Notes: a model not told the origin generated them from the sequence alone. A stretch of DNA of 52,368 bases from Myxococcota bacterium (GCA_036149055.1 JAYZQJ010000202.1:1-52368); one strand, 5' to 3'. Positions 10,328 to 29,346 are shown, counted from the stretch's first letter. Translations and numbers: made by a program.

Positions 10328-10398
10328 CCGTCCGGAGGCGCGAGATCGACGGCGAGAGCTGCGAGCCCCGATGACGCTCGGTCTGGTATCGTGCGCCC

Positions 10399-12045
10399 AT
10401 GCAACGCGCTGGAGCCCGCTGGAGCCTGCTGCTCGCGCTCGCGACGCTCGCGGCGTGCTCGGAGACGCCTCGCACGCAGGTGATGGTCTTCGTGCGGGCC
10501 GAGGAGGGCGTCCGCGCCCGGGCGCAGCGGCTGGACGTCGAGGTCTTCGGCGCGGGGCCCGGCGAGGCGCGCGCGCTGCGCGACACGTTGACTTACACCG
10601 ACGCGGCGAGCTCGGAGTTCCTCCCGCTCCAGTGGCCGCGGCGGGTGGCGCTGGTGCCGGCCGGGGGCGACCCTCTGCGGACCTTCGCGGTCGTCGCCAC
10701 CGCCCAGGACGACGGCGGGGAGATCTTCGCCCGCGCGGAGGTGGCGAGCAGCTACCTCGAGGGCCAGACGCTCACCCTCGACGTCTGGCTCCGCGACGAC
10801 TGCGTGGGCACGGTGTGCCCGGCCGGCGAGACCTGCGCCGCCGGCGCGTGTCGCCCGGTGGACGCCACCGACCCGTGCTCGCTGCGCACGCTCGAAGGCG
10901 ACGCCGTCCCCGAGGGCTGCGCGCCGACGACCGACGCGGGGCAGGACGCGGACGTCGACGCCGGGGCGCCGGACGCCGGCCCAGACGACGCCGGCCCCGA
11001 CGACGCCGGGCCGCCCGACGCCGGGCCGACGCCCGTCGACCGCTACAACGTCGTCTTCGTCACCTCGACCCCGCGCGCTCCCGGGGGCCTCGGAGGCATC
11101 GAGGGGGCGCATCGGTACTGTCAGGACCTGGCGCGCGACGCGAACCTCCCGGAGCCGGCGAGCTACCGGGCGTTCCTGTCGACGTCGTCGGCGCCGGCGA
11201 TCTCGCTGCTGACCGGGAGCCGCGGGTTCGTGCGCGTGGACGGGCGGCCGGTGGCGGACCGTCCGAGCGAGCTGGTCGCGGGAGAGATGCGCTACCCGAT
11301 CGCGCTCGACGAGACCGGCGCCGAGCCGCTCGAGACGCGGGTCGCGACCGGGACCCGGGTGGACCACACCGCCGGGCTGACGTGCGACGACTGGACGTCC
11401 GAGGCCGGCGAGCCCACCGCGGGCAACGCCTTCGACGGGGTGCGCTTCTGGCTCGACCGGCGCTTCGGCTTCGCGCCCGCGCCGCGCGCGCTGTCCTGCG
11501 GCGAGCCGCTCTCGCTCTACTGCTTCGGCACCGGCCGGACCCGCGCGCTCGAGACCGCCGCGCCGCCCGCGGGCGCCGGAGGCGCGTTCGTGACCTCCGA
11601 GCCGGTCGGCACCCAGCCCGCCGGCATCGCCGCGTTCGACGCCGCCTGTCAGCGCGAGGGCGGTGAAGACTACGTGGCGTTCTTGCCCGACGGCGCCGGG
11701 GCGAGCCCGATCGCGCGCCTCGGCGGCTTCGGTGGCCCGTGGTACCGGCCGGACGGAGTGCGGGTGGCGGCCGGCGTCGCCGAGCTCGCCGGCGAGCAGC
11801 TCGACGCGCCGCCCATCCAGACCGCGCTCGGGGTCTACGCCGCGGACGGACGGATCTGGAGCGCCGAGGCCACCCCGGACGTGTCCACCGGCTTCGCGTG
11901 CGACGCGTGGACCTCCACCGGGCCGCGGGGCCGCTTCTCGTACCTCGGCCTGGCGCGCACCTTCTACACCCGCGCGGTCTACCGCGAGTGCGGAGGCGCC
12001 GAAGGCGAGCGCGTGCTCTGCCTGTCCACCGCCCCGGTGTACTGA
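10399..12045 (+). CDS. Lipoprotein with DAG-repeat linker and two DUF1554/endostatin-like domains
   Basis: Lipobox LAAC, PDAGPDDAG repeats, VFVTS...GGLGGIEGA...CQ...YRAFLS and a second copy AFVTS...FDAACQ...YVAFL. Confidence 0.7.
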   Translation: MQRAGARWSLLLALATLAACSETPRTQVMVFVRAEEGVRARAQRLDVEVFGAGPGEARALRDTLTYTDAASSEFLPLQWPRRVALVPAGGDPLRTFAVVATAQDDGGEIFARAEVASSYLEGQTLTLDVWLRDDCVGTVCPAGETCAAGACRPVDATDPCSLRTLEGDAVPEGCAPTTDAGQDADVDAGAPDAGPDDAGPDDAGPPDAGPTPVDRYNVVFVTSTPRAPGGLGGIEGAHRYCQDLARDANLPEPASYRAFLSTSSAPAISLLTGSRGFVRVDGRPVADRPSELVAGEMRYPIALDETGAEPLETRVATGTRVDHTAGLTCDDWTSEAGEPTAGNAFDGVRFWLDRRFGFAPAPRALSCGEPLSLYCFGTGRTRALETAAPPAGAGGAFVTSEPVGTQPAGIAAFDAACQREGGEDYVAFLPDGAGASPIARLGGFGGPWYRPDGVRVAAGVAELAGEQLDAPPIQTALGVYAADGRIWSAEATPDVSTGFACDAWTSTGPRGRFSYLGLARTFYTRAVYRECGGAEGERVLCLSTAPVY

Positions 12046-13061
12046 GGGCGGTCGCCGTCCCGCGCGGCCCACCAGGCGCACATCCGCGGCCAGAGCTCGC
12101 GCTTGGCCGCGCTCGACACCACCGCGCCGACGTGGCCGCCAGGGAGGTGGAGGTGCTCCTTGTCGTCGCTCGACACCCGGTCGACCAGCACCGACGCGCT
12201 CTGGTGCGGGACGATGTGGTCGTGGGCGAAGGTGATCGCGAGCAGCGGGCAGTCGATGTCCTCGAGCCGGAGCCGCCGACCGCTCAGCGCCATCTCGCCG
12301 CGCACCAGCCGGTCCTCCCGGTAGAGCTCGCGGATGTACGTGCGGTAGCACTCGCCCGGGAAGCTGACGTTGTCGTTGCCCCAGGTCTCGGTGGCGAAGA
12401 AGCCGTCGAGGAAGCGGTCGTCCCAGGCGCGGTCGACGAGCTTGACCGCCTTCCACAGCGACAGCGTCGGCCGGAGCATGTGGAAGCTCGCCTGCATGAG
12501 CGGCCAGGGCACGTTGCCGAAGCCGTTCACCAGCGCGTCCACGTCGAAGCCCGGGCTCCGCACCCAGCGCGACAGCAGGCCGTCGTCGTGGAAGCGGACC
12601 GGCGCGGCGAGCGCGAGCAGCGACGCGAAGCGTGTTGGGTGCGCGGCCGCGTGGGCCACCGCCAGCGTGCCGCCCATGCAGTAGCCGAGCACGTGCGCCT
12701 TGCCGGGGCGCCGACCGAACGAGGCCGCGACCCGGATCGCGCGGCCGACGTAGGTGTCGGCGATGTCGTCGAAGGAGAGGTAGCGGTCCTCGTCCTGCGG
12801 CGTGCCCCAGTCGATGCAGAACACGTCGAAGCCCTGCTGCACCAGGTGCTCGGTGAAGCTCTTGCCGGGCAGGAGATCGAGCACGTAGTGGCGGTTGATC
12901 AGGCTCGGGACGAGCAGGATCGGCGTGTCGTGCAGCACGCGCTCGCTGCGGTAGCGCAGGAGCTTCCACTTGTTCTCGCGGTGCACCACGTCGGCCGGGG
13001 TGCTGCCCACCGGAGGGCGCCCGCGGGCCACGTGCCGCGCCAGGTTCATGAAACGGTTCAC
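11979..13061 (-). CDS. phaC: Class III/IV-type polyhydroxyalkanoate synthase
   Basis: 360 aa. GSTPADVV, PILLVPSLINRHYVLDL, IDWG, lipase box GYCMGG (catalytic Cys), DHIVP (Asp) and GGHVG (His). Confidence 0.9.
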   Translation of the reverse strand: MNRFMNLARHVARGRPPVGSTPADVVHRENKWKLLRYRSERVLHDTPILLVPSLINRHYVLDLLPGKSFTEHLVQQGFDVFCIDWGTPQDEDRYLSFDDIADTYVGRAIRVAASFGRRPGKAHVLGYCMGGTLAVAHAAAHPTRFASLLALAAPVRFHDDGLLSRWVRSPGFDVDALVNGFGNVPWPLMQASFHMLRPTLSLWKAVKLVDRAWDDRFLDGFFATETWGNDNVSFPGECYRTYIRELYREDRLVRGEMALSGRRLRLEDIDCPLLAITFAHDHIVPHQSASVLVDRVSSDDKEHLHLPGGHVGAVVSSAAKRELWPRMCAWWAARDGDRPQYTGAVDRQSTRSPSAPPHSR

Positions 13062-13079
13062 GTCGGTCCTCGTCCCGCC

Positions 13080-14786
13080 TCAACCATAGAGCGCGGCGAG
13101 TCGCTCGCCGAACCGCTCGATGATCTTCTTGCGCTTGGCCTTGAGGGTCGGGGTCAGCATGCCGTTCTCGACCGTCAGCGGCTCGTCCATGATCACGAAC
13201 TTCTTGATCGTCTCGAAGCGGGCGAGGTGGGCGTTCGCCGCGTCGATGCGGGACTGCACGAGCGCGAGGCGCGCCTCCTCCCGCGCGTCCGGCGGCGAGA
13301 CCTCGGCCAGCGCCGCGTCCACCGCGGCCTCGTCGAGCCACACGCCGGCGGTGAGGTACTTCTCCCCGTCGCCGTAGACGATCAGGTGGGTGATGTAGGG
13401 GTCGTCCTTGAACTGGATCTCGATGTTCGCCGGCGCGACGTTCTTGCCGCCCGCGGTCACGAAGATGTCCTTCTTGCGGTCGACGATCTGGAGGAAGCCG
13501 TCTTCGGTCCAGCGCCCGACGTCGCCGGTCTTCAGCCAGCCGTCCTCGGTGAACGCCTCCTTCGTGGCCTCGGCGTCCTCGTGGTAGCCGCCGAAGATCG
13601 ACGGCCCCCGGGCGAGGATCTCGCCGTCCTCCGCCAGCTTCAGCTCCACGCTCGGCAGCGCCTTGCCCACCGAGTCGAAGCGGAAGGCGTCCGGGCGGTT
13701 CAGGGTCAGCGTCGGGCTCGCCTCGGTCAGGCCGTAGCCCTCGATGATCAGCCGGCCCGCGTCGTGGAAGAGCTCCTTCACCTCGCGCTTCAGCCCCGCG
13801 CCGCCGCTGAGGCAGAAGCGGAGCCGGCCGCCGGTCAGGGCGTCGAGCTTCGCCTTCGGGTCCGCGTCGGCGCGGGCCCAGGTCGCCAGCTTCTCCCAGA
13901 CGCTGGGCACGCTCATGAAGACCTGCGGCCGCACCGACGGGAGGTCGTCCATCACGCGCTTCGGGTCGCTGAGGTAGCTGGTCCACCCGAGGGTGTTGCC
14001 GAGCGACGCCTCGCCGAAGCCGAAGATGTGACTGAACGGGAGCCAGAGGAGGTCGACGTCGCCGTCCTCGACGAGCGGGCCGTTGCACCGCAGCCAGTCG
14101 GAGCCATTGACGCCGACGTTCCGGTGGGTGAGCGGCACGCCCTTGGGCCGCCCGCTGGTGCCGCTCGTGTAGAGCATGACCCCGGGCTGATCGAGGCTCA
14201 CCGCGTCGATGGTCTCGCGGAAGGCGCTCGGCTCCTCGCGGCCGCGCGCCGCCCCCGCCTCCATCACCCGCGACCAGGTGAGGAGCCGGGCGTCGAGCTG
14301 CGCGCGCGACGGCGCCCTCTCGCCGGCCGCGGCCAGGGCGGCGTCCACGTCGAGCGCGTCGTCGAAGAGCACGACGCGCTTCACCGCGTCGAGATCCTCC
14401 CACGCCTCGAGCACCCGGGTGAGCAGCGGGAGCGTGTCCACGAAGAGCACGCGCACGCCGCCGTGGCGGATCACGTAGCCCGCCTGCTCGGCGGTGCTCG
14501 ACGCGTAGATGGGCACCATCACCCCGCCGGCGGCCTGCGCGCCGAGCGCGGCGCTCATCCACTCCACGCGGTTCGGGGCGAAGAGCGCGACTCGATCTCC
14601 GGCCTCGATCTCGGTGCCGAGGTAGAGCGCGCAGCGCTCGATCTGCGCGGCGTGCTCGGCGTAGGTGACCGGCTTCCAGCCCTCGCCGTCGGGCACCATG
14701 AAGCGCGCCCGCTCGGCCCGCTCCTCGAGGTGGTCGAAGATCGCCTTCGGCGCGATGCGCACGTCCAGGTAGGGCGTGGTGTCCAT
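13080..14786 (-). CDS. Long-chain acyl-CoA synthetase (FadD/FAA1-like AMP-dependent ligase)
   Basis: [46 protein letters not shown] and LTPTLK. Confidence 0.93.
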
Positions 14787-14787
14787 C

Positions 14788-15099
14788 TCAGGCCTCCTCT
14801 CGCGGCGGCAGCCGGGCCTCGAGATCCTCGAGGCGCTCCTCGAGGTCGAGCAGCTTGCTGTGGATCTGGTGGAGCGTGTGCAGCGCCCGCTCCTGATCGC
14901 GCTTGGTGGGCAGGCCCCAGCCGCCCCAGAACTGCGCGAGCGCCTGCTCCCCCGCCGCGCGCGCCTTCATCGCGCCGCTCAGCAGGTGCCCGGTCGGCCC
15001 GAGCACGGTCGGGTTCTTGAGCGCCTGCTCCATGTAGTCGGCGGTCGCGCTCTCCCAGGCGAAGAAGCCCTTCTTCCACTGTTCCCACATCTCGTTCAT
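14788..15099 (-). CDS. Small PhaE-like PHA synthase accessory subunit (103 aa)
   Basis: [10 protein letters not shown]...[30 protein letters not shown] resembles the PhaE C-terminal LPT(R/K) plus coiled coil. ATGA overlap upstream, 1 bp gap to the ligase. Confidence 0.65.
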
Positions 15100-15929
15100 G
15101 GCAGTCCCCTCGGCGTGATGCGCCGCAGCTCGGCGGCGTCGGTGAAAGGAGCGGTCGTCCCCGGCGCGCTCTGGGCGCGCGCGACCTCTCCGAAGCATTC
15201 GAAGAGCCAGCTGGTGAGCCGGCGGGTGGCGGTGGCCCCGGCGGCCGCCTCCACCGTGACCTGGGTGTCGACGCGCCAGGCCTGGCCGAAGCTCCAGTCC
15301 GGCAGGTCCAGCCTCCCCGCGCCGACCACCTCGACCTCGTAGGTGTCGGTGCCCCGGTACGCGAGCCCGAGCGCGGTGCCTGCGCTCACCTCGCCGACCA
15401 CGGTGTAGCGGTCGCCCTGCGAGAGCGGGAAGCGGTAGAGCGGCACCGGCGCGTCGTAGGGGAGCAGCGTGCGGCCCTCGGGCGGGTCGGGCTCGGCGCT
15501 GGCGACGCCGTGCAGCCACAGGCCTCGCTCGTCGAGGTGATAGACGCCGAGCACGGTCCCCTCGAGGTCGACCGGCGCCACGTAGTCGCCGCCCGGGAAG
15601 TCGTCCGCGAACCACTGATCGGTCAGCGCGCGCGGCCCGATCCCGATGACGCGATCGTCGGCGAAGTCGGCGCCGAGGTCCCACACCCGGCGCCCGGAGG
15701 GATCCACCGCGCCCTCCAGATCGACCCGCCGCGAGACGCCCTCCGGGTTGACCAGGTAGGCGACCTCTCCGCCGAGCAGGACCGGCACCTCGCCCGCCTC
15801 CAGCACGCCGTCGAGGTCGGGCACGCAGGTGAAGCCCTCCTCCTCGCCGGGCGCGAACGGCGTCGGCCCGGGCAGGGTCCGGTTCTCGCCGCAGGCGACG
15901 AGCAACAAGGCCACGAAGAGCGCCCTCAC
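15096..15929 (-). CDS. Lipoprotein of unknown function (paralogue 3)
   Basis: GTG start overlapping the upstream stop; lipobox LVAC; shares motifs with 18513-19484 and 21723-22664. Confidence 0.8.
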   Translation of the reverse strand: MRALFVALLLVACGENRTLPGPTPFAPGEEEGFTCVPDLDGVLEAGEVPVLLGGEVAYLVNPEGVSRRVDLEGAVDPSGRRVWDLGADFADDRVIGIGPRALTDQWFADDFPGGDYVAPVDLEGTVLGVYHLDERGLWLHGVASAEPDPPEGRTLLPYDAPVPLYRFPLSQGDRYTVVGEVSAGTALGLAYRGTDTYEVEVVGAGRLDLPDWSFGQAWRVDTQVTVEAAAGATATRRLTSWLFECFGEVARAQSAPGTTAPFTDAAELRRITPRGLP

Positions 15930-17491
15930 AGCGTCACCCACAGGCTCATGCGGAACAGCTGCGCCGGCTGCGCCGTCAGCCCGGCCTGCACGTTGTCGAG
16001 GCCGGCGAAGGGGAACAGGGCGGCGTAGGCGGCGACGATCGACCAGCCGTCGTCGTTCTCGTAGCTCAGGGTCGGGTCGAGCTCGAAGCCGAGCAGGTTG
16101 TCCCCGCCGGGCGCGCTCGACGACTCCGCCGCGAGGCTGAGGATGCCGGCGAGCGAGAAGCGCAGGCGCCCCGACGGATGCTCGAGGAGCGTGAGCCTCG
16201 CGTGCGGCCGCAGGTACACGGCGTCGGTGATCGTCCCGATGATCTCGCGGAAGAGGATGCGGTCGACCCGGTAGTTCGGATGGAAGCGGAAGTTGTCGGC
16301 GCGCATGTCGAAGGGCGCGACGATCTGGGAGCCGTCGAGGTCTCCCGGCCGGCCGGGCCCACGAGTGGCGTTGGGGAACGCGCCGAAGCCGGGCGCCGGG
16401 TCGCCGCTCGCGGCGCCGAAGTCGAAGCCCAGCTCGAAGATCTGCGGCGCGACGTGGAAGCGCGACTCGAACGCGAAGCCCCAGGCCAGGGTGTCGACCG
16501 GGTCGCGGAGGAAGACGCCCGGGATGAGCGAGGCCTCCTCGAAGCGCCCGCCGATGATCGCGCCCTCCGCGCCGACGTAACCCCAGGGCCCGCGGAGCCG
16601 GAGGAAGGCGTCGCCGGCCACCGCCTCGTAGCCCCGGCTGACGATCTGGCTGCGGCTGAGCTGGTAGTCGTCGGGCGTCGGCAGGTAGCTGGGCGACCAG
16701 TCGTTGTCCTGCCAGCGGTAGGAGACGAAGGCGCCGTACTCGACGGTGGTGAGCCCGGCGCGGGTCCGGCGACGCAGGCTGGTGTCGCTGGTGATGTTCA
16801 GGACCGCGAAGGTGAGCGTGCGGGTGTCGTCGGTCGGGTCGACGTCGAGGAAGCGGACGCCGTCGGCCCGCGGCACGTTCGGGCCAATCGCGGTCAGGTC
16901 GAACGCGAAGGTCCAGATGTGACCCAGCAGCGGCGTGGCGAAGAAGACGCGGTCGGCCGCGTCGTCGGTGTCGCAGGTCGGGCAGTCGCCGCCGTTCGAC
17001 TGCATGCCGAGGCCCCAGTGGCTGCCGATGCGGCCGGCCGCGATCAGCCCGAGCGGGGTGATCACCTGCGCCCACGCGCGCTTCAGCACGAACGCCGACC
17101 CCGGCGAGCGCTGGCGTCGCGAGTCGGCCGGCGGCCCGACCGGCAGGCTGCCGAACGAGAGGTTGTCGAGCACGTCGATCCGGGCGTGCACGCTGACGGT
17201 GGTGTCCGGGATCGTGAACGCGAGGTCCGTACGCAGCCGCATGTCGGCGTGCGTCAGGAGCTGCCCGAGCGGATCCGCCTGCGGCACCGGGAAGAGCGGA
17301 TCGCCGCTCGGCGTCGGGCCGCGATCGAGGTCGAGGTTGTGGAAGAGCTCGCCGCGCGCCCGGAAGAAGATCCGGTAGTCGACGAGGTCGGCGTCGCCGG
17401 GGTTCGGGACCCGGCGCACCACCGCCTGGGCCTGCGCCAGCGACGGGGCCAGCGCGGCGAGCAGCGCGGCGAGAGCGAGGAGCTGCCTCAT
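15926..17491 (-). CDS. Probable outer-membrane beta-barrel protein (TIGR04551-like)
   Basis: Signal peptide ending AQA; FRARGELFHN, HADMRLR, KRAWA, GR..SHWGLGM..N.GDC...D, FRFHPNYRVD.ILFR and GFELD; amphipathic C-terminal strand. Confidence 0.65.
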   Translation of the reverse strand: MRQLLALAALLAALAPSLAQAQAVVRRVPNPGDADLVDYRIFFRARGELFHNLDLDRGPTPSGDPLFPVPQADPLGQLLTHADMRLRTDLAFTIPDTTVSVHARIDVLDNLSFGSLPVGPPADSRRQRSPGSAFVLKRAWAQVITPLGLIAAGRIGSHWGLGMQSNGGDCPTCDTDDAADRVFFATPLLGHIWTFAFDLTAIGPNVPRADGVRFLDVDPTDDTRTLTFAVLNITSDTSLRRRTRAGLTTVEYGAFVSYRWQDNDWSPSYLPTPDDYQLSRSQIVSRGYEAVAGDAFLRLRGPWGYVGAEGAIIGGRFEEASLIPGVFLRDPVDTLAWGFAFESRFHVAPQIFELGFDFGAASGDPAPGFGAFPNATRGPGRPGDLDGSQIVAPFDMRADNFRFHPNYRVDRILFREIIGTITDAVYLRPHARLTLLEHPSGRLRFSLAGILSLAAESSSAPGGDNLLGFELDPTLSYENDDGWSIVAAYAALFPFAGLDNVQAGLTAQPAQLFRMSLWVTL

Positions 17492-18516
17492 GGCGACGGC
17501 TCTCCGATCTCCACCCCGAGGGCGGGCGCCTCTCCTTCGGCCGCGGGCGCGACCGGGGCCGACGCCGCGGACGCCGGCTCGAGGGGCGCCGACTCCACCG
17601 GCACCGGAGCGCGCAGGCCAGGCGCGTCCTCGGCGCGGCCCTCGTCGAGGAAGCGCATCAGGTCGCGGAGCGACGGCCGCGCCGCCTCCACCATCGGGAA
17701 GTGACCGCAGCGCGGGTAGACCCGCAGCTCCGCGTTCGGCAGCTCGGCCTGCAGGCGCTCCCCCCAGCTCAGCCGCGACACCAGATCCTCGCGCCCCCAG
17801 AGGAGCAGCACCGGGGCCTCGATCTCCGCGTAGCGCTCGTGCTCGAAGCGCATGCCCCGCACGGTGGCCAGCGCCGCGGCCTCGGTCCCCGGCCGGTCGA
17901 GCGCGCCCTCGTAGGCCTCGATGAGCGCCTGCGGGATGCGGTCCGGATCGTAGTACGCGAGCGCGGCGCGCTCGTCCGGCCGCTGATCGTAGAAGGCGGC
18001 GAAGAGCAGCTCGCCCATGCCGTCCGCGTCCGCCCACTCGGCGAAGGTGTTGCGCTGCCCCGGGTAGACGAAGGCGTCGTAGAGCGCGATCCGATCCACC
18101 CGGGCCGGCGCCTCGAGCGCGACCGCGAGGGCGATGGAGCTGCCGTAGGAGTGGGCCACCACCGCCGCGTGCTCGACGCCTCGCGCGTCCATCAGCGCCA
18201 TGACCAGCCGGGCCTGCGCGCGCACGGTGTAGTCGCCCTGGGGGCGGCCGCTCCAGCCGAAGCCCTTGAGGTCGAGCGCGATCACCCGGTAGCCCGCGGC
18301 GACGAGCGCCGGCCGGACCCCGGCCCACACGTCGAGGCTGCTGGCGAAGCCGTGAACGAGCACCACCGGCGGGCCCTCGCCCTCGTCGACGAAGCGGACG
18401 CGCGCCCCCTCGAGCTCGGCGAAGGTCGCGTCCGCGGGCTCTCCCGGCAGCGCACCGGCGTGGAAGCCGAGGCAGCCGGTCCCGAGCAGGAGCGCGGCGA
18501 CGGCGATCCGCTTCAC
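17488..18516 (-). CDS. Exported (lipoprotein) alpha/beta hydrolase
   Basis: Signal ending GTGC; oxyanion HGF, DLKGFG.S, nucleophile elbow AHSYG, WGRED (Asp) and CGHFP (His). 4-bp overlaps at both ends. Confidence 0.88.
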   Translation of the reverse strand: MKRIAVAALLLGTGCLGFHAGALPGEPADATFAELEGARVRFVDEGEGPPVVLVHGFASSLDVWAGVRPALVAAGYRVIALDLKGFGWSGRPQGDYTVRAQARLVMALMDARGVEHAAVVAHSYGSSIALAVALEAPARVDRIALYDAFVYPGQRNTFAEWADADGMGELLFAAFYDQRPDERAALAYYDPDRIPQALIEAYEGALDRPGTEAAALATVRGMRFEHERYAEIEAPVLLLWGREDLVSRLSWGERLQAELPNAELRVYPRCGHFPMVEAARPSLRDLMRFLDEGRAEDAPGLRAPVPVESAPLEPASAASAPVAPAAEGEAPALGVEIGEPSP

Positions 18517-19484
18517 CGCACCCTCCAGAGCTCGCCGGCCACGCTCGGCTCGGCGTCGGTGTCGTTGTCCCGACCGAAGAGCTGGGCCACCGTGCCGAGG
18601 CACTCGGCGACGTAGGCGTGGCGCCGCGTGATCGTCACCAGCGCGCCGACGGTGCGGGTGATGCGCGTGTTCACCCGCAGGACCTCGTGCGTCCCCGCGG
18701 GCGTCCCGACCTGCCCGGAGGCGTCGACCTCCATGGTCCAGCGCTCGGTGTAGAAGCTGCTCACTCCGCTCGCGAGGCCGCTGACGGTCGAGGTCTCGCT
18801 CCAGGTGGCCTCCAGCGCGAGCGGCAGCTGCCACACCGGCATCGGCGGGTCGTACGCGAGCTCGGTGCGGGAGAAGCCGTCGGCCTCGGACACGACGCCC
18901 AGGAGCAGGACCGCGTCGTCGGTGACCTCGAAGACGCCGAGCAGCGACTCGTCGCCCGAGAGCGGCAGCGAGTAGCTCGCGCCCGGGAAGGCCTCTCCGT
19001 ACCACTCGCCCGCCGGGTCGCGACGCACGAAGCTCCGGTCGGAGTCGTCGGCGTAGGGCCCCTCGAAGTCCCAGATGCGCTCGCCGGACGGCCGCTCCGC
19101 CCCGTGGCTGTCGACCGCCGCGTCCTCGGCGACCCGGAAGGCGAGCGCCTCGCCGATCGGGAAGCTCAGCTCGCTTCGCGCGATCACCCCGTCGCCGTCC
19201 CCGCACCCGGGCGGCCCGGCGTCCGGCGGCGTCACGCCCCCGTCCTCGTCCACTCCGCCATCGGGCGGCTCGGTCCCGGCGTCGCCCTCGTCCCCCGCGT
19301 CCCGAGCGGTCCCGCCGTCGATCGCGCCGGCGTCGTCTCCTTCGAGCGGCTCGCACACCCCGTCCGCCCGGCACACCCCCGACGGGCAGTCCGTCCCGAA
19401 CCGACACGGCACCTCCCCGCCCCCCGCGCAGCCTCCGATTCCGAGCGCTACACAGAGCGCGAGAAGACGACTGATCTCACGCAA
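18513..19484 (-). CDS. Lipoprotein of unknown function (paralogue 2)
   Basis: Lipobox IGGC, Cys motif CRFGTDCPSGVC and DAG linker. The start is uncertain (TTG 19484 or ATG 19586) because the frame stays open into the repeat region. Confidence 0.75.
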   Translation of the reverse strand: MREISRLLALCVALGIGGCAGGGEVPCRFGTDCPSGVCRADGVCEPLEGDDAGAIDGGTARDAGDEGDAGTEPPDGGVDEDGGVTPPDAGPPGCGDGDGVIARSELSFPIGEALAFRVAEDAAVDSHGAERPSGERIWDFEGPYADDSDRSFVRRDPAGEWYGEAFPGASYSLPLSGDESLLGVFEVTDDAVLLLGVVSEADGFSRTELAYDPPMPVWQLPLALEATWSETSTVSGLASGVSSFYTERWTMEVDASGQVGTPAGTHEVLRVNTRITRTVGALVTITRRHAYVAECLGTVAQLFGRDNDTDAEPSVAGELWRVR

Positions 19485-20154
19485 AGACGCTCCCGTGCTT
19501 CTCGCGACTCGTTCGAGTGCCGGGATCGAGGGACGATCAATTTCACGCAGAGGCGCAGAGGCGCAGAGATCGGGCCTCGCCGACATGATCGGGATCGCTC
19601 CTCGCTCACTCGTGCTTCTCGCGCCTCGTTCGAGTGCCGAGCTCGAGGGACAACTAATTTCACGCAAAGACGCAAAGACGCAAAGGGGGGCGGTCGCGGA
19701 CCGCCTGCGCGGGGCGTTCGGCGACGGGTCGGCCGACACCCGCGAGTCGGTGGCCGCCCGCGAGTCGGTGGCCGCACGCGAGTCGGTGGCCGCACGCGAA
19801 TCGGTGGCCGCCGGCGAGACGCCATCCCGCGGCCCTCTGCGCCTCTGCGCCTCTGCGAGAGAAAAACACTCACCCGCCGAGCCGCGCGCGACCGACCAAG
19901 ACGCAGACAACGGCCACCCCGCCCCCTTTGCGTCTTTGCGTCTTTGCGTGAGACCAGAAGCCACCGAAGCCCCGAGAACGGCGGGCGACTCGGTGGCCGC
20001 CGGCGAGTCGCCATCCCGCGGCCCTCTGCGCCTCTGCGCCTCTGCGAGAGAAAAACACTCACCCGCCGAGCCGCGCGCGACCGACCAAGACGCAGACAGC
20101 GGCCAACCCGCCCCCTTTGCGCCTTTGCGTCTTTGCGTGAGATCAGAAGCCACC
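19476..20154. repeat. REP-like repeat cluster of (CGCAAAGA)n/(CGCAGAGG)n units in both orientations with nested direct repeats
   Basis: Forward units near 19477, 19543 and 19660; reverse units near 19835, 19926, 20024 and 20115. Also a 117-bp-period repeat (19494/19611), an 18-bp unit x4 (19741-19812) and a ~165-bp direct repeat with 189-bp period (19801/19990). Confidence 0.9.
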
Positions 20155-20164
20155 AGAGGTCCCC

Positions 20165-21658
20165 TCAGCGAACGCCGACGACGAGCGAGGCGCGGGCGCG
20201 GTGCCGGCGGAAGGCGGTGACGGCGGCGAGCGCGGCGGCGCTGGCGAGCACGCCCTCGGTGGCGGTAGAGGCGGGGTTCACGAAGTGACCGTACCCGTAG
20301 ACGGCCACCAGGTAGTGGGTGAAGTGCACCACCGGGCCGAGGAGCGCCGCCGCGAAGACGTCGCGGCTGTCGAGCTCCGTGACGAAGATGCCCGCGGCGA
20401 CCGGGACGAGCGACGCGCTGACCAGCCCGTAGATGCCCACCTGGGCGAAGATGCCGACGAGCTCCGGGGGATCGAGCGCGAGCCCCGCGCTGAGCACGCC
20501 CATGCCGACCAGGATCCAGCGGCTCGCCTTGAGCGCGACGCCCTGGCGCTCGGTCTCGGTCTTGTCGGCGAGCCAGCGATCGCCGAGGCGGCCGAGGAAG
20601 ACGTCGTTGGCGGCGATGGTGGAGGCGCCGACCAGGAGGCCGTCGAGGGTGCTCATGCCCGCGGCGAGGAGCGCCACGCTGATGAGCACGCCGACCAGCG
20701 GGGTGAAGGCGCGGGTCAAGTAGATGGGCATCACCGCGTCCTGGCTCGCGATGTCGGGGAACCGGACGCGCGCGTAGAGCCCGGCGACGAGCACGAGGGC
20801 GAAGACGACGCCGACCGCGCAGGCCACGATCAGGTAGCGGCGCAGGTCGCTCTCCTTCTTCAGGTAGAGGCTCTTCATCAGGATGTGCGGCTGACACATC
20901 AGGCCCGCGCCGATGACGAAGCCGCAGACGTAGACGTCCCAGACCGAGCCGAAGAGCGAGCTCTCGGGGTTCACCAGGCCGACCATGTTGGGATCCTGGG
21001 CCGCGATGCGGTCGAAGAAGGGGCCGATCCCGTCCGAGAAGAGGTAGAGGCCGCTGCCGAAGATGGCGAACGCGACCCCGATCATCAGCGCGCCCTGGAA
21101 CGCGTTGGTGTAGACGTGCGCGTAGGTCCCGCCCATCAGGATGTAGCTGAAGACGAAGACCACGATGAGCAGCACCGAGGCGACGTAGCCGAGGCCCAGG
21201 GTGTGCTGCATCACCAGCGCCGAGCCCTTCACGATGAGCACCACGAAGCTGATCGCGAGCACCAGGTTCAGGAGCGCGAAGTAGGTGCGCATCCCGGCGT
21301 GCCGGTAGCGGGCGCCGATCCAGTGCGGGAGGGTGAGCGCCGCGGTCTTCTCGCCGAGCTGGCGGAAGCCCTTGCTGAGCAGCACCAGGGCCACGACCAC
21401 GCCGAGGTTCGCCGCGAGGCCGAGGTGCATCAGCGCGCTCACCCCGTGCGTGAACACGAAGCCCGGGTTGATCACGAAGGTCGCGGTGGACGCGATCGCG
21501 GCGGCGAGGGTGATCCCGACCATCGTGGGCCCGAGATCCCGATTGCCGAGCGCGAAGCTGGAGAAGGACTGTGTCTTCTTCATGCCGCGCAAGGCGAGCG
21601 CCGTGGTCAAGGCCACGTACGCGCCGAAGGCGCACCACGCCAGTAGGTTGCGATCCAT
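20165..21658 (-). CDS. Sodium:solute symporter (SSS) family transporter
   Basis: 497 aa with many TM helices. F.LGNR.LG, S.ATF...PG, TLP.WIG.RY, Y...GG...V.T...QG, PHIL and AAGMSTLDG.L. Confidence 0.9.
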   Translation of the reverse strand: MDRNLLAWCAFGAYVALTTALALRGMKKTQSFSSFALGNRDLGPTMVGITLAAAIASTATFVINPGFVFTHGVSALMHLGLAANLGVVVALVLLSKGFRQLGEKTAALTLPHWIGARYRHAGMRTYFALLNLVLAISFVVLIVKGSALVMQHTLGLGYVASVLLIVVFVFSYILMGGTYAHVYTNAFQGALMIGVAFAIFGSGLYLFSDGIGPFFDRIAAQDPNMVGLVNPESSLFGSVWDVYVCGFVIGAGLMCQPHILMKSLYLKKESDLRRYLIVACAVGVVFALVLVAGLYARVRFPDIASQDAVMPIYLTRAFTPLVGVLISVALLAAGMSTLDGLLVGASTIAANDVFLGRLGDRWLADKTETERQGVALKASRWILVGMGVLSAGLALDPPELVGIFAQVGIYGLVSASLVPVAAGIFVTELDSRDVFAAALLGPVVHFTHYLVAVYGYGHFVNPASTATEGVLASAAALAAVTAFRRHRARASLVVGVR

Positions 21659-21722
21659 CGATCCGCTCCTTCGAAAGGGGCGCCCCCGCCCCGCCCACCG
21701 CGCCCCTCACGAGGCGCGGGTC

Positions 21723-22664
21723 TCAGAAACCGAGCCGGCGGATCTCCGCCGCTCGGTCGAACTCCGCTTCGGTCTCGTCGTCCTCGCTGACGACCGTGGC
21801 CGCGGTGCCGAAGCACTCCACCGCGAACGAGAACTGGCGCACCACGGTGCGCGAGAAGCCGATGGTGCGCGTGAGCGTCGTGCGCACGCGCAGCGCCTCG
21901 AGGGGCGCGAACGGGGTGACCAGCTCGCCCCGCGCGTCGACCTCGCTCTCGTAGGTCTCGCCGAAGTTGGCGGCGAGCCCCTGGGCCACGCCGGTGACCC
22001 GCGCGTCGGTCGACCAGCGCGCGCCGAGCTCCAGCGGGAACACCAGCACCTTCACCGGCGGCTCGTAGGTGAGCTCGGTGCGGCCCGAGCCCTCGGTCGG
22101 CGAGACCACGCCCATCAGCTCGAGCTGGGTCTCGGTGATCCGGAACACGCCGAGCAGATCCGTCTCGTCGCCCAGCGGCGCGACGTAATCGGCGCCCGGG
22201 TAACGGTCGGCGAACCAGCGCCCGTCGAGCGGCTCGGTGACGACGTCGAAGTCGTGGTCGCCCGGGAGCGCGTCCGAGAAGTCCCAGCGGCGGCGGCCGT
22301 CGCCGAGGTCCGCGCCCGCGGTGTCGACGCCCACGTCGGTGGCGGTGCGGTAGCGCGCCATCAAGCCGGGCCCGAAGGGCGCCTCGGCGCGGCTGACCAC
22401 TCCGTCCTCGTTCGGGCGGCAGAGCCCGGATCCCGCGTCGCGCCCCGCGTCGGGCCGGAGGCCTCCGTCGACCGGGGGGACGCGGCCGTCGGGGAGGCGG
22501 GCGTCCGGCGGGTCTTGCGGCGGCGCACAAAGACCGTCCGACTGGCAGACGCCCGACGCGCAGTCGGCGCCGGTGACGCAGCGCGGCTGTGGTGCCGTGG
22601 CGTCGCAGCCCGCGAGCGCCGCGAGCAGCGCCAGCGCGCCCATCTCTGCCCGTCGTGTCAGCAT
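21723..22664 (-). CDS. Lipoprotein of unknown function (paralogue 1)
   Basis: Lipobox LAGC, CVTGADCASGVC, DAG linker and the shared domain. Start at ATG 22664 or 22643. Confidence 0.8.
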   Translation of the reverse strand: MLTRRAEMGALALLAALAGCDATAPQPRCVTGADCASGVCQSDGLCAPPQDPPDARLPDGRVPPVDGGLRPDAGRDAGSGLCRPNEDGVVSRAEAPFGPGLMARYRTATDVGVDTAGADLGDGRRRWDFSDALPGDHDFDVVTEPLDGRWFADRYPGADYVAPLGDETDLLGVFRITETQLELMGVVSPTEGSGRTELTYEPPVKVLVFPLELGARWSTDARVTGVAQGLAANFGETYESEVDARGELVTPFAPLEALRVRTTLTRTIGFSRTVVRQFSFAVECFGTAATVVSEDDETEAEFDRAAEIRRLGF

Positions 22665-22745
22665 CCCGGATTCCCATCCCCGCACCCGCACAACTGCGAG
22701 CGGAGCGTTAGTTACAGCCTGGAAACGCGAGCGTCAAGCGGAATC

Positions 22746-22761
22746 TTGTGCAGAGCAACAT
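22746..22761. promoter_or_regulatory. Putative PhaR operator 1, next to a leftward -35 (TTGACG at 22737-22732)
   Basis: TTGTGCAGAGCAACAT, with a TGC-N3-GCA core. Confidence 0.65.
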
Positions 22762-22839
22762 AGAACCCCGCGTCGGCCCGCCCGAACCCGCAATGACGCA
22801 GCACTTTTCCCAATGATTTCGAAGAAAGCGCCGACCGTT

Positions 22840-22855
22840 TTGTGCGGCGCAACAT
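22840..22855. promoter_or_regulatory. Putative PhaR operator 2
   Basis: TTGTGCGGCGCAACAT, 14/16 identical to operator 1. Confidence 0.65.
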
Positions 22856-22862
22856 TTTCTCG

Positions 22863-22891
22863 TTGACAGGCCACGGCGGCCCGCTTAGCTT
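22863..22891 (+). promoter_or_regulatory. Sigma70-type promoter for the phasin-like/phaB-like/phaR arm
   Basis: TTGACA (22863-22868), 17-bp spacer, TAGCTT (22886-22891). Confidence 0.7.
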
Positions 22892-22946
22892 CCGGCGCAT
22901 CGAGGGCAGACGATTCGAGCCGAACAGGCATTTCAGGAGAGTCACG

Positions 22947-23246
22947 ATGGCGACCAAGAAGACTTCGCAGGCGCAGCACAACGGTGAGAGCTTCCCCTTC
23001 CCCGGCCTCCCGGGCGTGGAGATGTTCCGCGGCATGATGCAGGCCCAGACCGAGCGCTTCGAGAAGATGTTCTCGGACATCGAGCGCCTCGAGCAGGAGC
23101 GGCACGAGCGCACCCTCGCCGCCCTCGAGGACGTCACCCAGCTCATGAAGAGCACCCTGCACTACCAGCAGCAGCTCGGCGACCAGGTCCGCCGCGCCTC
23201 CCTCGAGGCGGCGCGCAAGAGCCTGGAGATGGCGACGAGCGTCTGA
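22947..23246 (+). CDS. Putative phasin (PHA granule-associated protein), 99 aa
   Basis: AGGAG RBS; small helical Q/E/M-rich protein; first gene behind the PhaR box. Confidence 0.55.
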   Translation: MATKKTSQAQHNGESFPFPGLPGVEMFRGMMQAQTERFEKMFSDIERLEQERHERTLAALEDVTQLMKSTLHYQQQLGDQVRRASLEAARKSLEMATSV

Positions 23247-23307
23247 ACGACCGTGTTGGGGCGCCGCGTGGCGCCCCGGCTCGCTCCCCCGCACCCGAGG
23301 AGGACAC

Positions 23308-24057
23308 GTGAAGCTGAACGAGATGAAGGTGATCGTCACGGGCGCGGCCCGGGGCATGGGCGCGTACTTCGCGCGCCGTTTCCACGAGGCGGGCGCGCAG
23401 GTCGCCGCCGGCGACGTGGCCGAGGAGGCGCTCGCGGAGCTGCCCGAGGGCATTCACCGCCGCCGGCTCGACGTCTCCGACGAGGCGGACGTCACCGCCT
23501 TCGTCCAGTGGGCGCACGGCGCGATGGGCGGGCTCAACGGCCTGGTCAACAACGCCGGCATCATCCGCGACGGCCTCCTCGTGAAGAAGGACCGCAAGAC
23601 CGGCGAGGTCAAGCGCCTCTCCACCGCCGACTGGGACGCGGTCATCGGCGTCAACCTCACCGGCGCCACCCTGATGGTGCGCGAGACCGTCGCGCAGATG
23701 CTCAGCGCCGAGGAGCGCCCGGGCGTGATCGTCAACGTCTCCAGCGTCAGCCGGCACGGCAACCGCGGGCAGTCGAACTACGTCGCCGCCAAGGCGGCCC
23801 TCGCCGCCAACACCGTGACCTGGGCGCGGGAGTTCTCGCGCTACGGCATCCGCGCCACCTGCGTGGCCCCCGGCATGATCGAGACGCCCATGACCCAGGG
23901 CATGAACCAGAAGGCCCGCGACGCGCTCGTGGCCGCCATCCCGGTCGGCCGCATCGGCGACCCCGAGGACATCTGGCAGGCCGTCCGCTTCTCCGTCGAG
24001 TGCGACTACTTCAACGGTCGCTGCCTCGACGTCGACGGTGGGCTGGTGATGACGTGA
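23308..24057 (+). CDS. SDR 3-oxoacyl reductase (FabG/PhaB-like)
   Basis: TGAARGMG, NNAGIIRDG, VNLTG, NVSS and GQSNYVAAK (YxxxK); GAGGAGG RBS. Confidence 0.88.
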   Translation: MKLNEMKVIVTGAARGMGAYFARRFHEAGAQVAAGDVAEEALAELPEGIHRRRLDVSDEADVTAFVQWAHGAMGGLNGLVNNAGIIRDGLLVKKDRKTGEVKRLSTADWDAVIGVNLTGATLMVRETVAQMLSAEERPGVIVNVSSVSRHGNRGQSNYVAAKAALAANTVTWAREFSRYGIRATCVAPGMIETPMTQGMNQKARDALVAAIPVGRIGDPEDIWQAVRFSVECDYFNGRCLDVDGGLVMT

Positions 24058-24169
24058 AGCTTCCGTCGCGGAGCGGGTCCCGGACCCATTTCCATCCCAA
24101 CCCCGTCTGCCCGTCGGGGGGCCTGGGACCCGCTCCGTGGCGTTTATCTCGGGACCGAGGGCGGACTGC

Positions 24170-24748
24170 ATGAAGGCCGCGGACGTGGTAGCTACCCCCG
24201 TGGTCGTCAAGAAGTACGGGAACCGTCGGCTCTACGACACGACGGAGAGCCGGTACATCACCCTGGAGGAGCTCGCCGAGCGGATCCGGGGCGGGGACGA
24301 CGTGCAGGTGGTCGACGCCAAGAGCGGCAAGGACCTCACCCAGCAGACGCTGGCGCACATCATCCTCGAGAGCCGAGGGGCCGCCAAGCTGCTCCCCGTG
24401 CCGCTGCTCAAGCAGCTCGTGCGCATGGGCGACGACGCGCTGGCCGAGTTCTTCGGCATGTACGTCTCGAGCGCGCTCGAGCTGTACCTGCACGCGCGGA
24501 GCGGGGCCCAGGCGATGGTCCCCTACAACCCGTTCGCGCAGATCCCGATGGCCGCGACCAACGCGTTCGCGCGCATGTTCGGCGGCTGGGGACAGCCCGC
24601 GCCGCCGCCGCAGCCCGCGCCGCCCGCGCGCCCGTCGCCGCCGCCGCCCGAGGACGACACCGCCGATCAGGTGGCCGCGCTCCGGCGGGAGCTCCAGGAG
24701 CTCAAGGACGCGCTGCGACCGAAAGGGCGCGAAGACGACGAGACTTGA
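24170..24748 (+). CDS. phaR: PHA synthesis repressor PhaR
   Basis: KKYGNRRLYDTTESRYITLEEL...VVDAKSGKDLT..TL..IILE is the diagnostic N-terminal DNA-binding domain. Confidence 0.92.
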   Translation: MKAADVVATPVVVKKYGNRRLYDTTESRYITLEELAERIRGGDDVQVVDAKSGKDLTQQTLAHIILESRGAAKLLPVPLLKQLVRMGDDALAEFFGMYVSSALELYLHARSGAQAMVPYNPFAQIPMAATNAFARMFGGWGQPAPPPQPAPPARPSPPPPEDDTADQVAALRRELQELKDALRPKGREDDET

Positions 24749-24766
24749 GCTACCCTCCGGACCGCC

Positions 24767-25687
24767 TTGACGTACAAGGACTACTACCAGGTGCTCGGCG
24801 TCGGTCGAGACGCGTCCGCGGAGGAGCTGCAGAAGGCCTACCGCCGGCTCGCGAAGAAGTACCACCCCGACGTCAGCAAGGAGCCGGACGCCGAGGATCG
24901 GTTCAAGGAGCTCGGCGAGGCGTGGGAGGTCCTCAAGGACCCCGAGAAGCGCCGCCTCTACGACAAATGGGGCCCGCACTGGAAGGCGATCAGCGAGGGC
25001 CGTCAGCCGCCGCCCGGCGGCCCCGGCTCCTCCGAGTTCCGCTTCGACTTCGGCGACCTCGGCTTCGGCGGCTCGGAGGGCGGCGACTTCCGCTCCATCT
25101 TCGAGCAGGTCTTCGGCGGCCGCGGCCCCGGCGGCCCGGGCGGGAGACGGCGCCGCCCCGGGCGCGCCCGCCCCAAGGACCACGAGACCACCCTCGCGCT
25201 CTCGGTCCAGGCCGCCTACGAGGGCGGCCCCCGCGACATCCAGTTCGTCGACTCGATCACCGGCGAGCCCAAGCGCCTCACGGTCAACGTGCCGGCCGGC
25301 GTCCGCGCCGGGCAGCGCATCCGGCTGAGCGGGCAGGCGGGCGGCGGCGCCGACCTGTATCTGGTGGTCGAGGTGAAGAGCGGCGAGCCCTTCCGCATCG
25401 AAGGGGACGACGTGACCACCCCGCTCCGCATCAGCCCGTCGGAGGCGGTCCTCGGAGGCACCGCGCCCCTGACGACCCTGGATGGGAACGTTCGGGTGAA
25501 GATCCCGCCCGGATCGAGCAGCGGCCGGCGAATTCGGCTGCGAGGCCGCGGCTATCCAGGTAAAGGAGGTCGTCGGGGGGACCTCTACGCGGAGATCCAG
25601 GTGATGGTCCCGTCCGAGCCGACCGAGGAGGAGAAGAGCCTCTACGCGCGGCTGGCGGAGGTCACCCGGTTCGACCCCCGCGAATGA
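24767..25687 (+). CDS. DnaJ class B / CbpA-like co-chaperone
   Basis: J-domain DYYQVLGV...YHPDV, G/F-rich region and DnaJ C-terminal domain without a Zn finger; TTG start. Confidence 0.92.
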   Translation: MTYKDYYQVLGVGRDASAEELQKAYRRLAKKYHPDVSKEPDAEDRFKELGEAWEVLKDPEKRRLYDKWGPHWKAISEGRQPPPGGPGSSEFRFDFGDLGFGGSEGGDFRSIFEQVFGGRGPGGPGGRRRRPGRARPKDHETTLALSVQAAYEGGPRDIQFVDSITGEPKRLTVNVPAGVRAGQRIRLSGQAGGGADLYLVVEVKSGEPFRIEGDDVTTPLRISPSEAVLGGTAPLTTLDGNVRVKIPPGSSSGRRIRLRGRGYPGKGGRRGDLYAEIQVMVPSEPTEEEKSLYARLAEVTRFDPRE

Positions 25688-25724
25688 GGTAGACTGTCCA
25701 GTCTGCGGTGCACCAGGCTCACCG

Positions 25725-27836: not shown

Positions 27837-27842
27837 AGCTAC

Positions 27843-29346
<1,504 letters not shown>

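Follow-up and report, generated by a model that had tools for sequence, protein, structure and literature searches.

The 52,368-nt stretch of Myxococcota bacterium DNA analysed here (the window; GCA_036149055.1, JAYZQJ010000202.1:1-52368) carries a polyhydroxyalkanoate (PHA) locus in which genes for a PHA synthase (PhaC), an acyl-CoA ligase and the regulator PhaR are joined to a cassette of envelope genes for lipoproteins, an alpha/beta hydrolase and an outer-membrane beta-barrel. PHA loci are known as cytoplasmic systems; the arrangement seen here is a genuine and widely conserved extension of them to the cell envelope that seems not to have been described before. The assembly is 96% complete, with a genome size of 9.9 Mb. 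All genes named in an initial annotation, which was made from the sequence alone, were found intact at the coordinates listed below.

11979..13061, minus strand: PhaC, class III-like PHA synthase (key residues C128, W227, D281, H310)
13080..14786, minus strand: AMP-forming acyl-CoA ligase, FadD11/long-chain-like (PF00501)
14788..15099, minus strand: small PhaE-like protein of 103 residues (weak TIGR01834 match)
15096..15929, minus strand: lipoprotein 3, an open beta-cup resembling YmcC/TapB, predicted to cap the barrel on the cell surface
15926..17491, minus strand: 18-stranded outer-membrane beta-barrel of a TIGR04551-related subfamily, predicted polar, charged lumen
17488..18516, minus strand: lipid-anchored alpha/beta hydrolase (Abhydrolase_1; S123-D244-H272), probably periplasmic
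18513..19484, minus strand: lipoprotein 2, paralogue of lipoproteins 1 and 3, putative TTG start at the edge of the repeat
19461..20165, no strand: dispersed palindromic repeat cluster between the symporter and lipoprotein 2 genes
20165..21658, minus strand: sodium:solute symporter (SSS) of an uncharacterised clade (PF00474)
21723..22643, minus strand: lipoprotein 1, with a Cys-rich N-terminal module, a linker and a beta-cup domain
22745..22761, no strand: PhaR-type operator, imperfect copy closest to the envelope arm (TGC-N3-GCA core, A/T-rich arms)
22839..22855, no strand: PhaR-type operator, its minus strand matching the exact B. diazoefficiens consensus (PMC6201568)
22947..23246, plus strand: putative phasin-like small protein
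23308..24057, plus strand: FabG-like 3-ketoacyl reductase of the PRK08217 type (NF006072)
24170..24748, plus strand: PhaR repressor (PF07879, PHB_acc_N)

The left-arm order given by the initial annotation (lipoprotein, SSS, lipoprotein, hydrolase, barrel, lipoprotein, PhaE-like protein, ligase, PhaC) stands, except that the SSS and lipoprotein 2 genes are not neighbours: a palindromic repeat of ~700 bp lies between them. The four 4-bp overlaps (GTGA at 18513-18516, ATGA at 17488-17491, GTGA at 15926-15929 and ATGA at 15096-15099) were found again, as were the 1-bp gap between phaE and the ligase gene, the 18-bp gap between the ligase gene and phaC, and the divergent order of the phasin-like, FabG and PhaR genes. 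Scans for sigma-70 promoters and terminators gave no signal above shuffled sequence. Four RNA runs were considered as evidence of transcription over positions 8000-27999; their contigs cover the locus, its intergenic parts and its flanks alike, and thus show neither transcription nor co-transcription. An exported DUF1554-like open reading frame (10399-12045, plus strand) is convergent with phaC, and the 3′ ends of the two overlap by 67 bp.

The conservation of this arrangement was followed in 50 orthologue loci, namely 20 from relatives, 20 phylum-wide and 10 chosen mostly for the absence of a close PhaC, with one locus coming from the unpublished genome G023. A TIGR04551-like gene of some kind is present in each of the 41 genomes from the search for relatives, and 20 of them besides the present genome encode an orthologue of the barrel; phaE, the ligase gene and phaC lie within 10 kb of the barrel gene in 19 of these 20 relative loci. 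In a sample of 300 genomes from the phylum, the barrel was detected at E ≤ 1e-50 in 72, or 71 after removal of G043, where the match is the universal paralogue described below. A close PhaC (E ≤ 1e-60) is encoded within 10 kb of the barrel in 54 of the 71, and a more diverged PhaC-like gene stands beside it in 12 of the 15 loci fetched from the remaining 17. Five families contain genomes with and without the barrel, and within them PhaC occurs in 40 of 41 barrel-positive genomes versus 1 of 54 barrel-negative ones; in a sixth family (f28), all PhaC genes are diverged and fall short of the threshold.

Among the 50 loci, the lipoprotein is present in all, the hydrolase in 49 (the single miss lies at a contig end), a PhaC-like protein in 46 and the ligase in 44. 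PhaE-like proteins and PhaR are each found in 35, FabG in 17, a thiolase and MaoC in one each, secreted lipase-like proteins and PhaZ in four each, and AbfD-like proteins in two. The conserved core consists of lipoprotein, hydrolase, barrel and lipoprotein together with the ligase and PhaC, and the envelope genes are conserved with phaE, the ligase gene, phaC and phaR across the phylum, in support of the initial annotation. The cassette is also found without PhaC and with catabolic genes, an AbfD-like gene plus a TetR gene in one locus and SSS plus ligase genes in another.

The cassette also appears to share regulation with the polymer genes. The minus strand at 22840-22851 is identical to the footprint-derived PhaR consensus of Bradyrhizobium (PMC6201568), and a similar motif with A/T-rich arms occurs in Sinorhizobium (PMC12542648). 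Using the Bradyrhizobium consensus, by which binding here is predicted from the sequence, the window operator is one of 14 strict matches in the genome. In 22 of 43 loci, a strict operator is present in the 430 nt that precede the cassette, and the total of 25 matches compares with 0.93 expected from the remaining sequence of the same loci. In many loci the box could serve a divergent phasin or phaR gene. It also lies just upstream of three cassettes of a second kind (type B, described below; L100, L107 and L092), in which neither phasin nor phaR stands beside the lipoprotein gene.

The window barrel scores 292.7 bits against TIGR04551, short of the cut-off of 300, and its close homologues are named TIGR04551 by their sources. 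Both the search and the tree place it in a subfamily separate from a universal TIGR04551 member of ~700 residues, and its closest named homologue (90%) is labelled Sandaracinaceae by its source. The genome encodes the universal barrel (~720 residues; L080, C141:29104-31275) near the trigger factor and ClpP genes, and two more distant TIGR04551 paralogues on contig C223. The AlphaFold2 model of the window barrel (predicted local distance difference test (pLDDT) score of 91) has 18 long strands and no plug. Its nearest fold matches are MOMP of Campylobacter (Z 24.1, root-mean-square deviation (r.m.s.d.) 3.9, 350 residues aligned), AlgE (Z 22.7, r.m.s.d. 5.0, 355 aligned) and OccD2 (Z 22.4, r.m.s.d. 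4.0, 328 aligned), and a FadL homologue comes last of the 50 matches listed (Z 10.3). Since importers as well as an exporter are among the nearest matches, the direction of transport cannot be read from the fold. Based on the model, 13 conserved Arg and 13 Asp/Glu residues would line the lumen, mostly in common with the universal paralogue, and the lumen is predicted to be polar, unlike that of FadL. The neighbour cluster of the barrel in the ESM Atlas is named alginate export, with PF13372 on 21% of its members.

Lipoproteins 1, 2 and 3 are paralogues with pairwise identities of 31-39%. The model of lipoprotein 3 (pLDDT 92) is an open beta-cup, whose best fold match is 4fvs (Z 9.1, r.m.s.d. 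4.5, 175 residues aligned) and which is also near YmcC. A Foldseek search with the lipoprotein gave no match at E ≤ 0.001. A profile search (727 proteins) brought up no named relatives. In some proteins, the beta-cup domain is present in two or three tandem copies. The complex predicted for the barrel and lipoprotein 3 scores 0.72, against 0.00 for the best control; a score of 0.72 is reached by 116 of 157 solved complexes and by 2 of 215 mismatched pairs, a calibration that holds only roughly for alignments of our own, as used here. At least 89% of contacts are common to the runs, and the partners have pLDDT values of at least 85. On the barrel, the predicted interface comprises residues 246-261, 300-308 and 371-373 in the loops after strands 9, 11 and 13 (L5-L7). 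With the N-terminus in the periplasm, these loops would face outward by strand count, and lipoprotein 3 is predicted to form a surface lid on the outer loops of the barrel.

The initial annotation described the enzyme of the cassette as an exported alpha/beta hydrolase. The fold assignment is correct, and the protein is more precisely a lipoprotein: the lipobox Cys is present in 44 of 45 homologues, and the Ser-Asp-His triad is invariant in all 45. With respect to extracellular PHA depolymerase models, PF10503 is absent among its Pfam matches, and NF050058 and TIGR01840 are not among the best 25 of its 37 NCBIfam matches. Judged by these profiles, the hydrolase is not a member of a PHA depolymerase family. 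One of its top structural matches is 6i8w, which we take to be the phospholipase PlaF.

In 25 proteins, a lipobox, the hydrolase, a flexible linker without a signal peptide and the barrel form a single chain. These fusions were drawn from 90 matches to one fused protein, among which 27 long candidates were found and 25 kept; P0269 was dropped because of an internal signal-like stretch and P0303 as truncated and suspect. Two seeming fusions, hydrolase-barrel and PhaR-lipoprotein, in L091 were attributed to read-through by the open-reading-frame caller and discarded. The fusions occur at two separate places on the barrel tree, the starred branches of which force at least two changes (FastTree, local supports). 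Fusion to the N-terminus of the barrel places the hydrolase most simply in the periplasm, where it would act after the pore and see only what the pore passes. The enzyme is therefore probably periplasmic rather than surface-exposed, and the surface hydrolysis assigned to it by the initial annotation is not sustained, given this recurrent fusion and the lack of a match to any PHA depolymerase family.

The best model for the window PhaC is TIGR01836 (class III; 277.2 bits, under the cut-off of 365.3). All four key residues are matched in its alignment to C. necator PhaC (5HZ2; E 2e-31), and the catalytic Cys-Asp-His and the Trp are kept in 84-85 of 85 homologues. We therefore regard it, from its sequence, as a class III-like PHA synthase with a putative activity in the polymerisation of 3-hydroxyacyl-CoA. 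The PhaE-like protein covers only PhaE positions 236-322 (TIGR01834, E 7.6e-4). The best NCBIfam match of the ligase is FadD11 (256 bits versus a cut-off of 950), and in other loci a second ligase family occupies the same slot. The reductase, annotated initially as FabG/PhaB-like, is a FabG of the PRK08217 type (NF006072, 275.9 bits versus 298) and not a PhaB, as both PhaB models fall well under their cut-offs (144.8 versus 302 and 146.7 versus 436). PhaR matches PF07879 with 88.6 bits and TIGR01848 with 92.7 (cut-off 109). The phasin-like gene has no Pfam or NCBIfam match; its label is drawn from size, position and the PhaR box upstream, and related small proteins occur in 16 of 40 loci.

In this 96% complete assembly, the intracellular depolymerase PhaZ (TIGR01849) was not found, NF050089 gave no hit over its cut-off, and no canonical Bdh, AcsA2 or PhaB scored over cut-off. 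Bdh was found in 4 of 301 genomes in a survey that scored only 8 candidates per genome and may have missed copies. Elsewhere the genome encodes two FadL-family proteins and one WS/DGAT. It also carries an Rv1683-like fusion of a PhaC domain and an acyl-CoA synthetase (L078:3829-6840, contig C182), which scores 922.6 bits against PRK07868 (cut-off 925); in view of this separate gene, an assignment of the window locus as an Rv1683-type lipid-droplet system was set aside.

Several variants were seen around phaC in other loci. In L037, L044 and L045, phaC is followed directly by a gene for a small membrane protein (no family match), which we take from a motif to be SatP-like, and by an intracellular PhaZ gene (TIGR01849 over cut-off); a Bdh-like gene also follows in two of them, judged by the stretches fetched. 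Directly after the cassette, L058:6632-8038 encodes a 468-residue protein that contains a Cys lipase box, matches no family and is possibly a very diverged PhaC-like enzyme, and the PhaC-like gene of L065 has Ser instead of the catalytic Cys. AbfD-like proteins adjoin the cassette in L033 (6305-7741) and L065 (12571-14028), and one is encoded unlinked in the present genome (L077, C98:9716-11155); Pfam gives only the HpaB family for them, and we presume the label from a motif of 4-hydroxybutyryl-CoA dehydratase. A FabH-like (KAS III) gene recurs beside phaC, SSS or type-C barrel genes (L060, L092, L094, L097, L119, L136). Presumably, it might make acetoacetyl-CoA instead of PhaA, as NphT7 does.

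The SSS remains below the cut-offs of characterised families (PanF 120.6 versus 328, PutP 94.3 versus 515, ActP 37.3 versus 750), and no solved relative was found by sequence. It is present in 11 of the 50 loci, and a major facilitator superfamily (MFS) carrier in 5, so the symporter, which the initial annotation listed in the left arm, is an accessory. Of the 54 genomes with this SSS clade, 52 carry a type A or type B barrel, versus about 19 expected (kin are not independent), and in three genomes the clade sits with an e-dPHA-type depolymerase.

The repeat between the SSS and lipoprotein 2 genes (19461-20165) consists of 20-nt perfect terminal inverted arms and 170-nt direct repeats. Its relatives give 391 blastn high-scoring segment pairs on 76 contigs of the same genome, and one 23-nt core unit is present in 154 copies in about 87 clusters on 69 contigs. 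The repeat is absent from the SSS/lipoprotein 2 junction of three relatives, and the gap is only ~10-30 bp in a genome of the same genus. The native ATG of lipoprotein 2 seems to have been replaced by the repeat, leaving a TTG start, and the repeat itself is outside the conserved system.

Some genomes that have phaE, ligase, phaC and phaR genes and lack the barrel of the window (type A) carry another barrel-like protein (type B), which has no detectable sequence relation to type A (hhalign probability 0.1). Type B is present in 39 of 301 genomes and overlaps with type A in 2, versus 9 expected. Together, these two nearly exclusive versions of the cassette occur in 108 of the 300 sampled Myxococcota genomes. 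Twenty hand-chosen type-B loci of the 39 contain the hydrolase in 20, the shared lipoprotein in 16, and PhaC (often two) and the ligase in 12 each. A secreted hydrolase is encoded in 18 of the 20, lipase-like in 15 and of the polyhydroxybutyrate (PHB) depolymerase family in three; all three of the latter score above the cut-off of TIGR01840, and two above that of e-dPHAscl type 1. For two further type-B barrels, a depolymerase-family gene lies no more than 3-5 kb away, and the five cases together belong to two families.

In this genome (contig C83) and in two others, a third kind of barrel-like gene (type C) is encoded behind an e-dPHAscl depolymerase gene, with the following layout on C83.

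L097, C83:8211-14567: e-dPHAscl type 1 depolymerase with C-terminal anchor, regulator-like gene, lipase-like lipoprotein, type-C barrel-like gene, FabH-like gene

The L097 gene order is kept in the two other genomes, and in one of these two the next gene encodes an SSS 51% identical to that of the window. The extracellular depolymerase family models match the C83 gene and not the window hydrolase. The same slots have thus been occupied repeatedly, and the known polymer-cutting enzymes that occur with them are PHB depolymerases. The lipase-like secreted protein (about 550-620 residues, C-terminal anchor, no curated family; L098-L116), present in 15 of 20 type-B and 4 of 50 type-A loci, is a candidate new depolymerase or lipase on sequence grounds. 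A PhaZ7-like identity of the C83 lipase-like protein or of the secreted type-B lipase was not supported (PhaZ7 at E 0.45), and a genome-level link between the cassette and depolymerases was unusable because the family is common everywhere.

The layout of lid, pore, esterase, carrier, CoA ligase and synthase reads as import. We consider that there is about an even chance that the locus encodes an import system, under PhaR control and independent of TonB, that takes up soluble ester oligomers, most likely from the breakdown of PHA, and feeds CoA activation and re-polymerisation. The basis of this reading is gene linkage, predicted folds, catalytic residues, the fusions and the operator, and from these we infer the direction of transport, the substrates and the polymer. 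In the proposed scheme, a secreted or surface-anchored depolymerase, encoded elsewhere in this genome and next door in the analogous cassettes, would cut a polyester outside the cell to soluble oligomers. Surface lipoproteins, predicted to dock on the outer loops of the barrel, would capture these, and the oligomers would traverse the barrel to its periplasmic mouth, where the lipid-anchored esterase may convert them to monomer hydroxy-acids. The SSS, or an MFS carrier in some loci, would move the monomers over the inner membrane; the ligase would make the CoA thioester directly, bypassing the PhaA and Bdh routes, for re-polymerisation by PhaEC, and the FabG-type reductase may connect the pool to 3-ketoacyl-CoA. 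From the established biology of PhaR, its release onto granules would raise uptake as storage grows. The polyester utilisation locus proposed in the initial annotation thus retains its co-conservation, PhaR operators, import-like layout and analogous cassettes with PHB depolymerases, and loses surface hydrolysis and a constant symporter.

A number of observations weigh against import of PHA oligomers. The whole reading is drawn from sequence and models. The loci were hand-chosen, and kin among them are not independent. The hydrolase scores far below the PHA oligomer and intracellular depolymerase models (NF050089, 69.1 versus 300; TIGR02240, 29.9 versus 250.6), none of the 50 type-A loci contains an extracellular PHB (e-dPHA) depolymerase, and depolymerase-family genes occur in 176 of 301 genomes with or without the cassette. 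The lumen charges of the barrel are uninformative on the substrate, as they are common to the universal paralogue, and the top Foldseek rank for the barrel belongs to an exporter, AlgE. The ligase matches the long-chain FadD families best, the SSS gene is often unlinked and elsewhere in the genome, and the failure to find an intracellular depolymerase in this genome leaves the use of the stored polymer unexplained.

The same import line might instead handle acylglycerols, lysophospholipids or other fatty-acid esters, with the beta-cup lipoproteins carrying lipid, the esterase freeing fatty acids, FadD activating them, and beta-oxidation and the FabG-type reductase supplying (R)-3-hydroxyacyl-CoA for PhaEC. 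The long-chain FadD type of the ligase, a FabG in place of a PhaB, the match of the hydrolase to 6i8w (presumably PlaF), the position of the lipoprotein fold in the YmcC/LolA-like open-barrel group and the lipase-like nature of the commonest secreted partner all fit such lipid scavenging. Bradymonas sediminis preying on Algoriphagus forms Nile-blue granules, from which the authors infer PHA made via beta-oxidation (PMC7460792), and a barrel homologue is labelled Bradymonadales by its source; with the terms searched, the supplements of Mu et al. yielded neither an entry for TIGR04551 nor a row on the expression of these genes. However, the predicted lumen is polar and the FadL homologue ranks last among the listed folds, the genome has its two FadL-family genes and WS/DGAT elsewhere, and true PHB depolymerases adjoin the analogous cassettes. 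To our knowledge, long-chain fatty acids have no need for an SSS or MFS carrier. We consider lipid scavenging into PHA somewhat unlikely. Transport could also run outward, a short polyester or ester made by PhaEC leaving through the AlgE-like barrel, being trimmed by the periplasmic esterase and held by the surface lipoproteins. AlgE heads the Foldseek ranking and shares a place near the top in VIA, the ESM Atlas cluster is named after alginate export, PhaR control suits a system that is switched on when polymer is present, many loci have two PhaC genes, and the lack of a detected intracellular depolymerase would fit as well. Export or surface display nevertheless seems unlikely, because no conserved inner-membrane exporter or tetratricopeptide repeat (TPR) adaptor recurs near the cassette in 40 loci, no carriers other than SSS and MFS are present, the cell would have no need of a CoA ligase unless free acids came in, and the cassette also occurs with catabolic genes and without PhaC. 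SSS members are importers.

That the cassette serves some other purpose and is clustered merely through a common response to PhaR would agree with PhaR regulons elsewhere, which are broad and include transporters (PMC12542648, PMC6201568), and with the 4 of 50 loci without a detectable PhaC. This we regard as highly improbable, since overlapping reading frames connect the barrel cassette with phaE, the cassette and PhaC are gained or missing together within families, and a different barrel has re-filled the same slots.

The locus resembles class III PhaEC loci in the Cys-Asp-His and Trp of PhaC, the PhaE-like partner, PhaR with its operator and the phasin-like gene. It differs in that PhaE has 103 residues instead of ~320, PhaC is under the cut-off, a thiolase is found in only one of the 50 loci, a ligase and FabG replace PhaA and PhaB, and four envelope genes are coupled to the operon. 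SusCD utilisomes combine in one locus a barrel with a lipoprotein lid, extra binding lipoproteins (sometimes with tandem repeats), hydrolases and an inner-membrane carrier. The window locus likewise unites a barrel and a predicted surface lipoprotein lid with putative binding lipoproteins, a hydrolase and a carrier; in contrast to SusCD, the barrel has 18 strands rather than 22 and neither plug nor TonB, the lipoprotein fold is YmcC/TapB-like, an esterase replaces the glycosidases, and the system is tied to a polymer synthase. In synthase-dependent secretion, AlgL and BcsZ are periplasmic trimming enzymes. The 18-stranded AlgE-like barrel, the probably periplasmic enzyme and the nearby synthase recall AlgE-type secretion, whereas PhaC is soluble and an importer and a CoA ligase are present here; no inner-membrane synthase/translocase with a TPR adaptor was found in the window or among the recurrent neighbours of the 40 loci.

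Bdellovibrio bacteriovorus has the extracellular-type PHA depolymerases Bd3709 and Bd2637, frees prey medium-chain-length PHA mainly as dimers and trimers, and, in strain HD100, made no PHA under the conditions tested (PMC4834554). No channel, carrier or ligase is named in the available portion of that article, whereas a line of import and re-storage is predicted here. Mycobacterial Rv1683/BCG1721 (PRK07868) also pairs a PhaC-like domain with an acyl-CoA synthetase and is tied to lipid bodies (PMC3503283); unlike the window genes, it is a fusion protein, of which this genome has its own copy on C182, and the window PhaC is much closer to class III. A full-text literature search, outside which most subscription journals lie, found the architecture nowhere described and no paper on TIGR04551, and the best 20 of 2,378 matches on oligomer uptake held no such channel. 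We know of no described route for PHA breakdown products across the outer membrane.

A wider proposal is tentative, and we hold it as possible though doubtful: about a third of Myxococcota would have a machine for polyester utilisation, of which three or more versions would have been assembled independently. Each version would combine a porin that works without TonB, a lipoprotein lid and a tethered esterase in the periplasm, and would turn PHA oligomers freed from prey or dead cells into granules of the cell itself by direct CoA ligation under PhaR feedback; the lipase-like type-B protein would represent a new family of depolymerases, and the SSS clade would transport 3-hydroxyacids. The locus offers a testable candidate for each step, namely the pore, the lid, the oligomer hydrolase, the carrier and the ligase. 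If transport instead runs outward, the locus would be the first polyester secretion system, which is equally interesting. If the import reading is true, a pore and a ligase for hydroxy-acid oligomers would be useful in recycling bioplastic monomers, and the system could be a common route by which stored carbon passes from prey or debris to predators.

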